Origin: an uncultured Gammaproteobacteria bacterium
GTDB taxonomy: Bacteria; Pseudomonadota; Gammaproteobacteria; JBGSLN01
Assembly: GCA_963695245.1 (NCBI GenBank)
Contig: OY968770.1
Span: 1,126,238 to 1,190,237, forward strand
DNA: 64,000 nt
Reading direction: 5' to 3'
Shown: piece after piece, positions 6,361 through 12,383 of the stretch
Numbering within the stretch: the first letter of the stretch is position 1
Layout of the letters: the number at the start of each line of letters is the position of its first letter
Position numbers and translations under genes: made by a program
Notes under the pieces: generated by a model
The model's database searches: none
Told to the model about the DNA's origin: nothing
Seen by the model: the letters and a program-made list of their open reading frames with translations, nothing else

Positions 6361-7275
6361 ATGGAAATTACTTTTGAACAAACTGTAATACAATTGCCAG
6401 AATACATCACGCTCAGCAAATTAAGAGTAGAAGCTGCCATTAAAGCCACCTTTGAGCAATTACCCAGTATTTCAGATTATTTAAAGCAGGCGATGCAATA
6501 TAGCCTGTTAAACGGTGGTAAAAGAATTCGATCTGCGCTTATTTATAGCCTGGAAAAACCGTTTAATCTAAATGCAGCAGTGTTAGATAAGATTGCTATT
6601 ACTATAGAGTGCATCCATGCGTCTTCCTTAATACACGATGATTTACCAGCTTTAGACGACGATGCTTTGCGACGAGGTCAGCCAAGCTGTCATATGGCGT
6701 TTAATGAAGCCATTGCAATTTTGGCAGGTGATGGATTGCTGAATTTATCTCATCAAGTGATTTTAAGCCTGACAGATACACAACTCGATGAAGCTAAAAT
6801 TATCAAGGTAGCTAAAATATTTTCCCATGCCATTGGCACAGCCGGAATGATTGGCGGGCAAGCCCTTGAGTTTCAGCCAGAAAATGAACCTGTTTCTGAA
6901 CAAACCATTCTCAAGCTCTATGAGTTAAAAACCGGTTGTCTGTTAGGGGCTGGTATTCAAATGGCCTTGAGCGTCGCAAAGGTGAGTGCGGATATCCAAA
7001 ATGCATTTGATAAGTTCTGCTACCATCTTGGCTTAGCCTTTCAAGTGCAAGATGATATTTTAGATATTGAGAGCAATTCAGAAACTTTAGGGAAACCACA
7101 AAATTCAGATTTTCAGGCCGACAAACTTACTATTGTTGCCAAAATTGGTTTACCTCAGGCAAAAGCTCTGTTCATGTATCATTCAAAAGCTGCCAGAGCA
7201 ATACTCAAAGATCTTCCCTATGATTTGACTGATCTTGAGACTATTTGTGATTTTTTAATGCAAAGAAAATTTTAG
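6361..7275 (+). CDS. crtE: Polyprenyl (geranylgeranyl) diphosphate synthase
   Basis: First Asp-rich motif LIHDDLPALDDDALRRG and second motif FQVQDDILD; heads the crt operon. Confidence 0.8.
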   Translation: MEITFEQTVIQLPEYITLSKLRVEAAIKATFEQLPSISDYLKQAMQYSLLNGGKRIRSALIYSLEKPFNLNAAVLDKIAITIECIHASSLIHDDLPALDDDALRRGQPSCHMAFNEAIAILAGDGLLNLSHQVILSLTDTQLDEAKIIKVAKIFSHAIGTAGMIGGQALEFQPENEPVSEQTILKLYELKTGCLLGAGIQMALSVAKVSADIQNAFDKFCYHLGLAFQVQDDILDIESNSETLGKPQNSDFQADKLTIVAKIGLPQAKALFMYHSKAARAILKDLPYDLTDLETICDFLMQRKF

Positions 7276-7282
7276 GTCATTT

Positions 7283-8767
7283 ATGAACTCATCAAAAAAA
7301 GTCTATGTCATTGGTGCTGGATTTGGAGGCATGGCGGCGGCCTTAAGATTACGCGCCAAGGGTTACGAAGTTGAAGTATTGGAGCGGGGCAATGAATCTG
7401 GCGGTAGAGCCAGAGTTTTTAAGCAAGAGGGTCACACTTTTGATGCAGGCCCAACAGTTATTACAGCGCCGTATTTAATTGAAGAACTCTTTGCGCTTTT
7501 TGATAAAAAAACGCAGGATTACCTTCAATTAAAACCATTGGATCACTGGTATCGTTATCAGTTTGAAGATGGTACGTTTTTTGATTATGTGAAAGACGAA
7601 GCACAAATGCTTACAAATATTGCCAAAATATCTTCCGCAGATGTAGAGGGCTTTAAAAAACTTACCAAGCTGTCACAAAAGATTTTTGATAAAGGCTTTA
7701 CCCAATTAAGCGATAAACCATTTTTTACCTTAAACTCTATGTTAAAACAGGCACCAGCGCTTATGAAACTGGGTGCCTATAAAAGCGTTTATCGCGCCGT
7801 GGGGCAATACTTAAGCTCAGAAAAGTTAAGAAGAGTTTTCACCACCCAACCGCTTTTGGTAGGCGGTGATCCCTTCAAAACCACCTCTATCTATCTGTTA
7901 ATTTTGCATCTGGAACAAAAATATGGCTGTCATTTTTGCATGGGTGGAACCACAGCGTTGGTAAATGCATTGACAACGTTAATGCAGGAAGTTGGTATTA
8001 CCATTCGTTACAACGCTACAGTCACTGCATTTAAAGGTGTTGGTAAAAAACTGTCGGCAGTCTGTGTGAATCATGAAGAGTATTTGCCTTGCGACATGGC
8101 TGTTTTCAATGGAGATCCTGCTTATGCGTATCATCATTTGATCCCCAAAAAAAATCACAGATGGCTCACTCGCTTACAATTGCCTAAAATGCAATACTCC
8201 ATGGGCTTATGCTTATTTTACTTTGGTACCACTGTGCAGTATGAAAATGTGCCTTTACATACCATAAGTTATGGATCTTCTTATCGGACTTTGCTGGAAG
8301 ATGTGTTTCATAAAAAAAATCTCAATTTAGATTTGAGTATTTACCTTTACCGTCCCACAGCCATTGATAAATCTTTGGCACCTGCAGGTAAAGACAGTTT
8401 TTATGCGTTATTACCGGTACCCAATCTTTTGGGGGATATCGACTGGTCACAAAAGCAAAAAACGCTGCAAGCTCATGTGATTCAATTATTAGAAGAACGA
8501 TTGTTGCCAAACCTTTCCAATACAATTTGTACCCAAAAATTTATTACCCCGGAATATTTTCAGTCAGAACTTTTATCTTTACACGGCAGTGGTTTTTCCA
8601 TTCAACCAATTTTCACGCAGTCGGCCTATTTGCGCTTTCATAACCGTGCTAAAAAATTGCAAGGATTATATTTTGTTGGGGCAGGTACCCATCCAGGTGC
8701 CGGTGTGCCAGGGGTTTTATCTTCAGCAAAACTTGTGGGTGATTTAATTCCGGAAGCAATCTCATGA
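7283..8767 (+). CDS. crtI: Phytoene desaturase
   Basis: N-terminal FAD fold VYVIGAGFGGMAAALRL, 494 aa, C-terminal GAGTHPGAGVPGV. Confidence 0.9.
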   Translation: MNSSKKVYVIGAGFGGMAAALRLRAKGYEVEVLERGNESGGRARVFKQEGHTFDAGPTVITAPYLIEELFALFDKKTQDYLQLKPLDHWYRYQFEDGTFFDYVKDEAQMLTNIAKISSADVEGFKKLTKLSQKIFDKGFTQLSDKPFFTLNSMLKQAPALMKLGAYKSVYRAVGQYLSSEKLRRVFTTQPLLVGGDPFKTTSIYLLILHLEQKYGCHFCMGGTTALVNALTTLMQEVGITIRYNATVTAFKGVGKKLSAVCVNHEEYLPCDMAVFNGDPAYAYHHLIPKKNHRWLTRLQLPKMQYSMGLCLFYFGTTVQYENVPLHTISYGSSYRTLLEDVFHKKNLNLDLSIYLYRPTAIDKSLAPAGKDSFYALLPVPNLLGDIDWSQKQKTLQAHVIQLLEERLLPNLSNTICTQKFITPEYFQSELLSLHGSGFSIQPIFTQSAYLRFHNRAKKLQGLYFVGAGTHPGAGVPGVLSSAKLVGDLIPEAIS

Positions 8768-10831: not shown

Positions 10832-11335
10832 ATGAAAATATTTTTATTTTGTGTATTACTGCCTTTTGGCTATCTGTTTATTTTTGAATATTTAACTTAT
10901 CTGCTCCACAAACATGTGATGCATGGGTTTGGTTGGGTTTGGCATGATTCTCACCATCAAAATCCTGGTGGTGGTATTGAAAAAAATGATTATTATGCCG
11001 TGTGTTTTGCCATCATCGCTATGGGTTTATTCTATTTGAGTACTTTTGAAAAGAATGGTCTTTGGATTTTATCCATTGCCATTGGGTTAACGGCTTATGG
11101 CGTTTTATATTTTCTGGTACATGACGTTCTAATCCATCGAAGGTGGCCTAATGCTCTTTATCGTAAAATTCAAAGCCCTTACATTAAGCGATTAATTCGC
11201 GCTCACGCTATTCATCATAAATTAAAAACAAAGCATGGCAACGAAGCTTTTGGATTTTTGTATGCACCCAAAAAATATCGTTATCCCACTGAAAATCTGG
11301 AAACCCTAAAAAGCAAACTGCAAGAGGTGCAATAA
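10832..11335 (+). CDS. crtZ: Beta-carotene hydroxylase
   Basis: 167 aa; His boxes HKHVMHGFGW, HDSHH, HDVLIHRR, HAIHH typical of CrtZ. Confidence 0.8.
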   Translation: MKIFLFCVLLPFGYLFIFEYLTYLLHKHVMHGFGWVWHDSHHQNPGGGIEKNDYYAVCFAIIAMGLFYLSTFEKNGLWILSIAIGLTAYGVLYFLVHDVLIHRRWPNALYRKIQSPYIKRLIRAHAIHHKLKTKHGNEAFGFLYAPKKYRYPTENLETLKSKLQEVQ

Positions 11336-11336
11336 A

Positions 11337-12383
11337 ATGCCTTTTGCCTCAGATTCAGAATATGTAACTGCAAAAGCCCCAGGAAAATTAATTTTATCTG
11401 GAGAACATGCCGTGGTACATGGTGCGCCTGCTTTGGCCATGGCCATTGACAAATTTACCCAAACCAGCATTAAAAAAGCCAGCCATATTCCCAGCTTTTT
11501 AAATTTACAGGCGTTGAATTTAAAAAAATCCGTGCCTTTTTCCATGTTAAAAGCCTTAGAAGATCAATTTTTAAGTAAACACAAATTATATCAATCGGGG
11601 AAAGCCTTAATCAAAGATGTGTTGTCTGAGCCTTTAGATTTAGCTATTTTTACTGCAGCTAAAATTTTGAAAATTATCGGTGCGCCTTTAAAGTATGGAT
11701 TGGATATTCAAACAACCTCTACGATTCCTGTAAGCTGTGGCATGGGATCTTCTGCTGCCAGCATTGTTAGCCTTATTAAAGCGCTGCAAAGCTTTTTAAA
11801 CTTAAATATCGAAGATAAACTGCTCATGGATATCGCACTTCAAGCAGAAAATCTTCAGCATGGACAATCCAGTGGTTTAGATTTACGTTTATCCATGCAA
11901 GGTGGCTGTTTGTATTTTCAAAATCAAAAATTTGAAACCATACACGGGATTCAAACGCCCTTAACCATTATCAAAACCGGCAAACCTGCAACCACCACAG
12001 GCGAGTGTGTCAGTCACACCACCAGATTTTTTCAGCAAAGCGAGTTAATAGAGCAATTTGCCAGCACCACTAAAACTATGCAACAGGCTGTGGCAGCTAA
12101 TGACACCCATTTGTTGCATAAAAGTATTCGACAAAATCATCGTCTGCTAACTGCCATTGAAGTTGTGCCACAAACCGTCAACCAATTCATCCATAACCTC
12201 GAAAACGCCAATATTTCTGCCAAAATTTCCGGCTCCGGTGCGGTATACGGCGATAATGCAGGCATTGTTATGGCACTTGGCGACAAAAAAGTTATCAAAA
12301 AAATCGCAAAAGAGGCAGGCTACACTGTAGATAGCATTTCTCAAAATCACGGTGGAGCGGCCTTGGTGTCCCAGGCTGAGTAA
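11337..12383 (+). CDS. mvk: Mevalonate kinase (GHMP kinase)
   Basis: N-terminal KLILSGEHAVVHGAPALAMAI plus GHMP motif PVSCGMGSSAAS; overlaps the crtZ stop (TAAAATG). Confidence 0.65.
   Translation: MPFASDSEYVTAKAPGKLILSGEHAVVHGAPALAMAIDKFTQTSIKKASHIPSFLNLQALNLKKSVPFSMLKALEDQFLSKHKLYQSGKALIKDVLSEPLDLAIFTAAKILKIIGAPLKYGLDIQTTSTIPVSCGMGSSAASIVSLIKALQSFLNLNIEDKLLMDIALQAENLQHGQSSGLDLRLSMQGGCLYFQNQKFETIHGIQTPLTIIKTGKPATTTGECVSHTTRFFQQSELIEQFASTTKTMQQAVAANDTHLLHKSIRQNHRLLTAIEVVPQTVNQFIHNLENANISAKISGSGAVYGDNAGIVMALGDKKVIKKIAKEAGYTVDSISQNHGGAALVSQAE

Follow-up and report, generated by a model that had tools for sequence, protein, structure and literature searches.

Carotenoid gene clusters leading to zeaxanthin are well described in Pantoea (Erwinia), where crtE-(idi)-crtX-crtY-crtI-crtB run in this order, crtZ is encoded by the other strand and the product is zeaxanthin diglucoside. 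The present study deals with a putative zeaxanthin operon ending in a mevalonate kinase gene (mvk), located beside a Dot/Icm type IV secretion system (T4SS) in a 64-kb stretch of DNA—hereafter the window—from an uncultured gammaproteobacterium (contig OY968770.1, positions 1,126,238 to 1,190,237). The two systems have five enzyme families in common (E, I, B, Y and Z), but those of the window follow the order E-I-B-Y-Z on a single strand and lack crtX, so that no glucoside is expected. The two also differ in that the first gene of the window is IspA-like and not a CrtE equivalog, that the embedded precursor gene is mvk, and that the host would use the mevalonate pathway and not the methylerythritol phosphate (MEP) pathway.

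Three further systems are close enough to be compared. Zeaxanthin and mevalonate-derived precursors are also combined in the proteobacterium Paracoccus zeaxanthinifaciens, in which the mevalonate operon and the crt genes are found at separate loci and which, unlike the host of the window, is a free-living alphaproteobacterium without Dot/Icm. Its mevalonate operon has been used in engineering (e.g. PMC7264872). In Coxiella burnetii and Legionella pneumophila, isoprenoids come from mevalonate and not from MEP (PMC9803151), and Coxiella cannot do without this pathway (PMC9997736). The Coxiella/Legionella operon comprises the genes for HMG-CoA reductase (HMGR) and HMG-CoA synthase (HMGS), mvk, pmk, mvaD and idi, its mvk being 38–44% identical to the last gene of the window operon (the sixth open reading frame, ORF6); in the window and in one related locus, L008, the kinase gene is no longer with HMGR, pmk and mvaD but stands behind crtZ. 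Since mevalonate is the ordinary route in Coxiella/Legionella, the presence of mvk is expected, and it is its location that is unusual. An earlier note on this DNA had taken the kinase gene as pointing to precursor supply via mevalonate; the kinase is indeed of the true mevalonate kinase type, but the supply itself is the standard route of these bacteria (PMC9803151, PMC9997736) and no special feature of the operon. The SAR11 bacteria (Pelagibacteraceae), finally, provide the nearest named CrtI outgroup (about 50–53% identity) with an identical I-B-Y order; they differ in having no adjacent crtZ or mvk, a crtE-like gene within 10 kb in one locus only, and a product that feeds proteorhodopsin, and the clade of the window is separated from them at 100% support. 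No cultured member of the Legionellales (Legionella, Coxiella, Rickettsiella, Berkiella) is known to produce carotenoids, and a literature search found no paper on crt genes in Legionellales.

It appears likely that a single operon, prenyl synthase (crtE)-crtIBYZ-mvk, encodes in the window a pathway to zeaxanthin together with a mevalonate kinase of the Coxiella/Legionella type. Its six ORFs, all on the + strand and tightly packed at 6361–12383, have the coordinates given in the earlier note; all are full length with intact catalytic motifs. The operon and its two flanks are as follows (scores are profile matches):

6206–6360, + strand: upstream intergenic region of 155 bp, presumed operon promoter; the sole sizeable gap 5' of the operon
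6361–7275, + strand: gene in the crtE position, IspA-like prenyl diphosphate synthase; Pfam polyprenyl_synt (PF00348), 170 bits
7283–8767, + strand: crtI, phytoene desaturase; TIGR02734 (crtI_fam), 510 bits, cutoff 238
8764–9675, + strand: crtB, phytoene synthase; Pfam SQS_PSY (PF00494), 195 bits
9668–10828, + strand: crtY, lycopene beta-cyclase; Pfam Lycopene_cycl (PF05834), 165 bits, cutoff 23.4
10832–11335, + strand: crtZ, non-haem di-iron beta-carotene 3-hydroxylase, 167 aa; Pfam FA_hydroxylase (PF04116), 35.3 bits, cutoff 31
11337–12383, + strand: mvk, GHMP kinase/mevalonate kinase; TIGR00549, 160.8 bits, cutoff 163.05
12416–12527, unstranded: perfect inverted repeat of 37 bp (hairpin) where mvk and a cytochrome P450 gene converge; RNA fold of -80.7 kcal/mol

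Chance ORFs are excluded because the ORF lengths and the profile scores are too high. The gene set and its order, as read in the earlier note, are thus borne out by the Pfam/NCBIfam matches and by the motifs. With regard to the junctions, crtE and crtI are separated by a 7-nt gap, crtI and crtB overlap by 4 nt (ATGA), crtB and crtY by 8 nt, and crtY and crtZ are separated by 3 nt. The first of these overlaps had been read correctly beforehand, whereas a 4-nt overlap also claimed between crtZ and mvk was a mistake, the two genes being 1 nt apart (TAA-a-ATG), with a Shine-Dalgarno-like AAGAGG lying inside the end of crtZ ahead of mvk. No glycosyltransferase (crtX) or ketolase gene is present within the crt cluster, which agrees with the absence of a glycosyltransferase already remarked upon.

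The promoter is presumably situated within 6206–6360, where a -35/-10-like site is seen at 6287–6314; such sites are no commoner there than in shuffled sequence. On the other side of this region, a 130-aa ORF (5813–6205, - strand) diverges from the first gene, matches no family and was not found in the related loci; it might encode a regulator, or else be spurious. The hairpin at the 3' end has a z-score of -15.7 against shuffles, and its repeat is found only once in the window; it is likely to act as a bidirectional terminator or insulator, although it may alternatively be a relic of a mobile element.

The pathway would start with ORF1, which carries both aspartate-rich motifs of the trans-prenyl synthase fold, the first (FARM; DDLPALD) at position 93 and the second (SARM; DDILD) at position 231. 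Its best relatives of solved structure are the IspA proteins of E. coli and Shigella. At the fifth position before the FARM, these two have a tyrosine (HAYSLIHDD), whereas ORF1 has a serine (HASSLIHDD), and this position is occupied by serine or alanine in all five crt-linked homologues. According to the chain-length rule for farnesyl and geranylgeranyl diphosphate (FPP and GGPP) synthases, a small, non-aromatic residue at this place allows a C20 product. The replacement of the IspA tyrosine by serine therefore predicts GGPP, and we infer that ORF1 is an IspA-like synthase with a predicted GGPP product and not a member of the CrtE family. The name crtE, as used in the earlier note, thus stands for the position of the gene, its profile affinity being to IspA.

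Of the remaining four Crt proteins, CrtI can be aligned end to end with the lycopene-forming CrtI from Pantoea (4DGK; 403 bits, residues 6–491), and it has the N-terminal GAGFGG FAD motif as well as the C-terminal bacterial phytoene dehydrogenase signature GLYFVGAGTHPGAGVPGVLSS; the HpnE model gives it 47.5 bits only. CrtB possesses the aspartate-rich motifs DDVVD and DVQED and both signatures of squalene/phytoene synthases. Its best solved relative is a CrtM, which carries little weight because no structure named CrtB is among the matches. In CrtY, the Lycopene_cycl profile is covered over positions 1–378 of 380 and the N-terminal dinucleotide-binding motif GGGLSG is present. CrtZ exhibits four histidine motifs (HKHVMH, HDSHH, HDVLIH and HAIHH), the third of them within HDVLIHRRWP, which departs from the conserved motif of non-haem di-iron beta-carotene hydroxylases, HDGLVHXRXP (PMC2288588), by the substitutions G to V and V to I; homologues of CrtZ at 41–51% identity bear the source name beta-carotene 3-hydroxylase.

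Taken together, the IspA-derived synthase would make GGPP, two molecules of which CrtB would join to phytoene; CrtI would desaturate phytoene to lycopene, CrtY would cyclise both ends of lycopene to give beta-carotene, and the di-iron CrtZ would add the 3 and 3' hydroxyls to yield zeaxanthin. The latter would stay unglycosylated because no crtX is present. The step from beta-carotene to zeaxanthin had been predicted before, and this prediction holds.

Concerning ORF6, TIGR00549 is its best model, and 11 of its 13 matches among solved structures are mevalonate kinases, the other two, which rank below them, being a homoserine kinase and one unnamed protein. The residues equivalent to K13, S146, E193 and D204 of the human enzyme (2R3V) are conserved (the alignment retains APGK, GMGSSAA, AEN and SGLD), as are the GHMP ATP motif PVSCGMGSSA and the N-terminal APGK..GEHAVVHG. 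Among the homologues at 38–44% identity are the mevalonate kinase of C. burnetii and proteins from metagenome-assembled genomes (MAGs) of Coxiella sp. Two homologues that were looked up (P0125 and P0172) both occupy the mvk slot of HMGR-(HMGS)-mvk-pmk-mvaD-idi operons, which adjoin rpsB-tsf-pyrH-frr-uppS-cdsA and contain separate pmk and mvaD genes. Since these two homologues fill the mvk slot of full mevalonate operons, ORF6 is taken for an mvk orthologue and not for pmk or another GHMP kinase; homologues, catalytic residues and operon slot thus uphold the kinase identity proposed in the first place. The closest homologue (P0122/P0243; 51% identity) is also crt-linked. No other mevalonate-pathway gene was detected among the Pfam-scanned ORFs of the window. 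Lying 1 nt past crtZ, mvk would couple the formation of the pigment to one reaction of its precursor supply at the level of transcription and probably also of translation.

The distribution of related clusters bears on both the pigment genes and the kinase. For CrtI, about ten relatives are found at 57–67% identity; the next ones reach no more than about 53%, and the named genomes among them are for the most part Pelagibacteraceae. At least nine related clusters of the crtEIBYZ type come from uncultured aquatic bacteria; the closest named genome by CrtI (61% identity) is the Francisellaceae MAG of the following list:

L003, L010: crtEIBYZ with a pair of ABC-2 exporter genes; IcmF/DotU genes at a distance of about 8 kb
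L091, L092, L093, L094: crtEIBYZ with ABC genes; source of L092, a Tara Oceans marine metagenome
L009: idi-crtEIBYZ (idi 143.8 bits, cutoff 127) and a convergently oriented ABC-2 pair
L004 (= L011): crtEIBYZ with an RND pump; MAG labelled 'uncultured Francisellaceae bacterium'
L002: crtIBY only
L008: crtI'-crtB-crtY-crtZ-mvk-ABC-ABC2; crtZ and mvk overlap by 4 nt, and the mvk product is 51% identical to that of the window

In the neighbour-joining tree based on concatenated CrtI, CrtB and CrtY, the seven clusters with enough sequence form one clade with 100% bootstrap support, apart from SAR11 and from two other gammaproteobacterial clusters. The window is grouped there with L002, L008 and L009 (96.5%), the branching order inside this group being unsettled. 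The GC content of the operon (0.36–0.41) matches that of the window (0.375), so there is no sign of recent import; an origin as a horizontally acquired island was also considered and rejected, as GC content revealed no anomaly. The crt operon is thus a form of the classical crt cluster of proteobacteria that is specific to this lineage, probably inherited vertically in a clade of uncultured aquatic gammaproteobacteria. A metagenome scan with the CrtZ alignment added one further close relative, L094, whose identities to the window proteins are equal to those of the Tara contig L092; the others were distant, with Pantoea-like arrangements in which crtZ is opposed to crtY-I-B. The neighbours of the crt genes in the relatives are accB/accC-pur genes, pantothenate genes or others. 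L003 and L010 encode a DotU only 30% identical to that of the window, their IcmF being cut off at the edge of the locus; these two may also be Dot/Icm-bearing. The statement of the earlier note that carotenoid biosynthesis is not a standard feature of Dot/Icm-bearing Legionellales holds for the cultured members, for which it is unreported; in uncultured relatives, at least nine related clusters exist.

As far as mvk is concerned, it is absent from the related clusters L002, L003, L004, L009, L010, L091 and L092, and no homologue was found within 10 kb at about 160 further crt loci in genome and metagenome scans. The crtZ-mvk junction nevertheless recurs in a second lineage: a short contig (L005) has it in the same form as L008. 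In L009, the first gene of the operon is idi (6806–7348), coding for a type-1 isopentenyl-diphosphate isomerase; some Pantoea crt clusters likewise embed this precursor-supply gene. Judged from these loci, the attachment of mvk to crt is rare but recurrent, idi in L009 being an apparent parallel case, and members of the clade would have recruited mevalonate genes into the crt operon, mvk in the window and L008 and idi in L009.

It should be noted that a pair of DrrA/DrrB-like ABC-2 exporter genes follows crtZ or mvk, or converges on crtZ, in most of the related clusters (L003, 14021–15938; L010, 14018–15926; L091, 5339–7265; L092, 5052–6113; L008, 4426–6354; L009, 12274–14179); such a pair is not seen beside the operon of the window. 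In L004, crtE is immediately preceded by a gene for a PAS-GerE (LuxR-type) regulator (2113–3366), and a DNA photolyase gene (8265–9008) lies 6 kb off; both hint at light-related regulation. Three GerE-type regulators are also encoded in the window (27199–28062, 28273–29100 and 42738–43535).

Several observations weigh against the reading of the locus as a zeaxanthin operon with its own mevalonate kinase. For ORF1, the best NCBIfam model is FPPsyn (276 bits, cutoff 275), while the CrtE equivalog NF045685 is not reached (189.5 bits, cutoff 460). The curated CrtB models give 171 and 157 bits (cutoffs 500 and 480) and HpnD gives 163 (cutoff 279), all below their cutoffs; the assignment of crtB rests on the crtI-crtB-crtY context, a block common to more than 70 other loci, because the curated models do not separate CrtB from HpnD. 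CrtY is divergent, reaching neither TIGR01790 (105.6 bits, cutoff 209.5) nor TIGR01789 (63, cutoff 215), and ORF6 stays about 2 bits short of the curated cutoff of TIGR00549. The mean identity of the crt-linked kinases (window and L008) to their homologues is 37–40% (39.6% for that of the window) as compared with 48% among the other 118 homologues. The promoter and terminator consensus scans of the operon region gave results at or below shuffle expectation. Finally, the end product could be altered by the two P450s next to the operon or by enzymes encoded in other parts of the genome.

The divergence of the kinase leads to the first rival explanation, according to which ORF6 is a diverged second copy with altered or specialised substrate or regulation, the housekeeping mvk being retained in a canonical operon elsewhere. 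The score just under the TIGR00549 cutoff speaks in its favour, and so does the fact that the two crt-linked kinases are the most divergent among the 121 homologues compared; the divergence as such is compatible both with an orthologue that was relocated and sits on a long branch and with a dedicated paralogue. On the other hand, the catalytic lysine, serine, glutamate and aspartate and the APGK..GEHAVVHG motif have been kept, all of the best homologues are mevalonate kinases and, as a weak argument, the top 120 matches hold no second protein from the contig of the window. A specialised second copy is thus unlikely.

The next possibility is that the operon serves light harvesting, beta-carotene being converted to retinal by a blh product encoded elsewhere and/or zeaxanthin acting as the antenna of a rhodopsin proton pump. 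The nearest CrtI outside the clade is from Pelagibacteraceae, whose crtI-crtB-crtY order is alike, and L002 has only crtIBY, as SAR11 does. In marine Dot/Icm-bearing relatives of the Legionellales (UBA7916/Comchoanobacterales), rhodopsins are present in 17 of 20 genomes, Comchoanobacter itself being without chromophore synthesis (PMC9418006), and hydroxylated carotenoids are reported to serve as rhodopsin antennas (PMC12137139). Against this, neither a rhodopsin nor blh was found among the Pfam-scanned ORFs of at least 120 aa in the window, the related crt loci have neither on record out to 10 kb, and retinal needs no CrtZ. Light harvesting as the purpose of the operon is therefore held to be quite improbable.

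The adjacency of mvk might also be meaningless, i.e. a housekeeping kinase happens to follow crtZ without being coupled to the pigment. Such a coincidence would agree with the lack of mvk in most related clusters and at the approximately 160 other loci, and with the usual place of mvk orthologues in a mevalonate operon, but it hardly accounts for the recurrence of the junction in the second lineage (with its 4-nt overlap and 51% protein identity), for the 1-nt gap, the Shine-Dalgarno-like sequence within crtZ and the lack of a terminator between the two in the window, or for the recruitment of idi in L009; we give it little credence. The last alternative, a non-C40 pathway of the C30 dehydrosqualene or the squalene/hopanoid type, which the earlier note had named as its refutation, can draw on FPPsyn as the top model for ORF1, on the closeness of HpnD to CrtB for ORF3 and on the CrtM relative, yet it is extremely improbable in view of the match of CrtI to its lycopene-forming counterpart against the low HpnE score, of CrtY and CrtZ, which have no role in C30 or hopanoid routes, and of the missing FPP-limiting tyrosine in ORF1.

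The Dot/Icm locus beside the operon is genuine and starts 2.9 kb downstream. The features between the operon and the core of the secretion system are:

12535–13860 and 13857–15200, - strand: two cytochrome P450 genes, filling the gap from the crt operon to icmN
from 15292: gene for an OmpA-type lipoprotein (icmN), first Dot/Icm gene
18020–19129, 19110–19850 and 19789–21198: DotG/IcmE, split into three ORFs in three frames

The genes following icmN code for DotI/IcmL (PF11393, 209 bits), DotH/IcmK (PF12293, 297 bits) and DotG-type repeats with TrbI; the unannotated ORFs up to one of 1007 aa (23994–27017) fit the remaining icm genes in sizes and order, and IcmF and DotU are located at 30.7–34.8 kb, the whole being arranged much as in Legionella. 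All three DotG ORFs encode the decapeptide repeat AGF[ST]AxQLK, which implies two frameshifts in the repeat region, either assembly errors or a disruption of a core gene of the apparatus. The distance of 3 kb to the T4SS, emphasised in the earlier note, is thus real, but the proximity is not conserved in the relatives and is given no functional weight; any conclusion on the niche drawn from it is speculation.

The two tandem P450 genes are paralogous (46% identical) and convergent with the operon. Among solved structures, they come closest to CYP97A3 and CYP97C1 (152 and 146 bits), which are plant carotene hydroxylases, but CYP170A1, CYP46A1 and CYP3A4 score almost as high. A search of 1.84 billion representatives gave no homologue above 41% identity, the nearest being unnamed or generic P450s. 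The substrate may be a terpenoid, a carotenoid or a sterol. Since no P450 is present near any other crt locus examined, the two were rejected as a conserved component of the pathway.

On the far side of the operon, in the region 3315–5816, the stop codon of glnA (4724) abuts the ATG (4725) of a short-chain dehydrogenase/reductase (SDR) gene, an odd partner for glutamine synthetase, whose product resembles 3-beta-hydroxysteroid dehydrogenase, HpnA or the sterol demethylase SdmB; seen alongside the P450s, this gene may point to the modification of sterols or terpenoids. A segment of low GC content (26–31%) at 47537–52081 contains two large ORFs (622 and 870 aa) without a Pfam match, which may code for Dot/Icm effectors or may have been acquired recently. 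Rfam models, including those for rRNA, gave no match in the window.

Returning to the zeaxanthin operon, it is intact and probably functional. The products of its enzymes, the co-transcription of its genes and its physiological role are inferred from the DNA, the pigment most likely serving an aquatic, host-associated bacterium as a photoprotectant or as an antioxidant of the membrane. A wider picture may be sketched tentatively, as possible and no more: a Dot/Icm-bearing clade of aquatic gammaproteobacteria would be constitutively pigmented, with an inherited crtEIBYZ set usually coupled to a DrrAB-like ABC-2 exporter and with mvk or idi repeatedly moved from the housekeeping operon into that of the pigment. 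The mvk of the window might then be the sole copy, hard-wiring an essential gene to zeaxanthin synthesis, and the pigment could serve light functions (as rhodopsin antenna or retinal precursor) or protection in phototrophic or oxidative hosts.

The enzyme families and the pathway are ordinary and the enzymology is that of textbooks; what is new is a zeaxanthin operon in an unusual lineage, so that the finding is of value to ecology and taxonomy rather than to the understanding of mechanism. The mevalonate genes in the crt operon provide a small natural case of the co-regulation of precursor and product which metabolic engineers build deliberately. A zeaxanthin operon beside Dot/Icm shows that a pigment pathway of the kind usually met in free-living bacteria exposed to light also occurs in some uncultured relatives of the cultured Legionellales, and the operon thus bears on where and how such Dot/Icm bacteria live.

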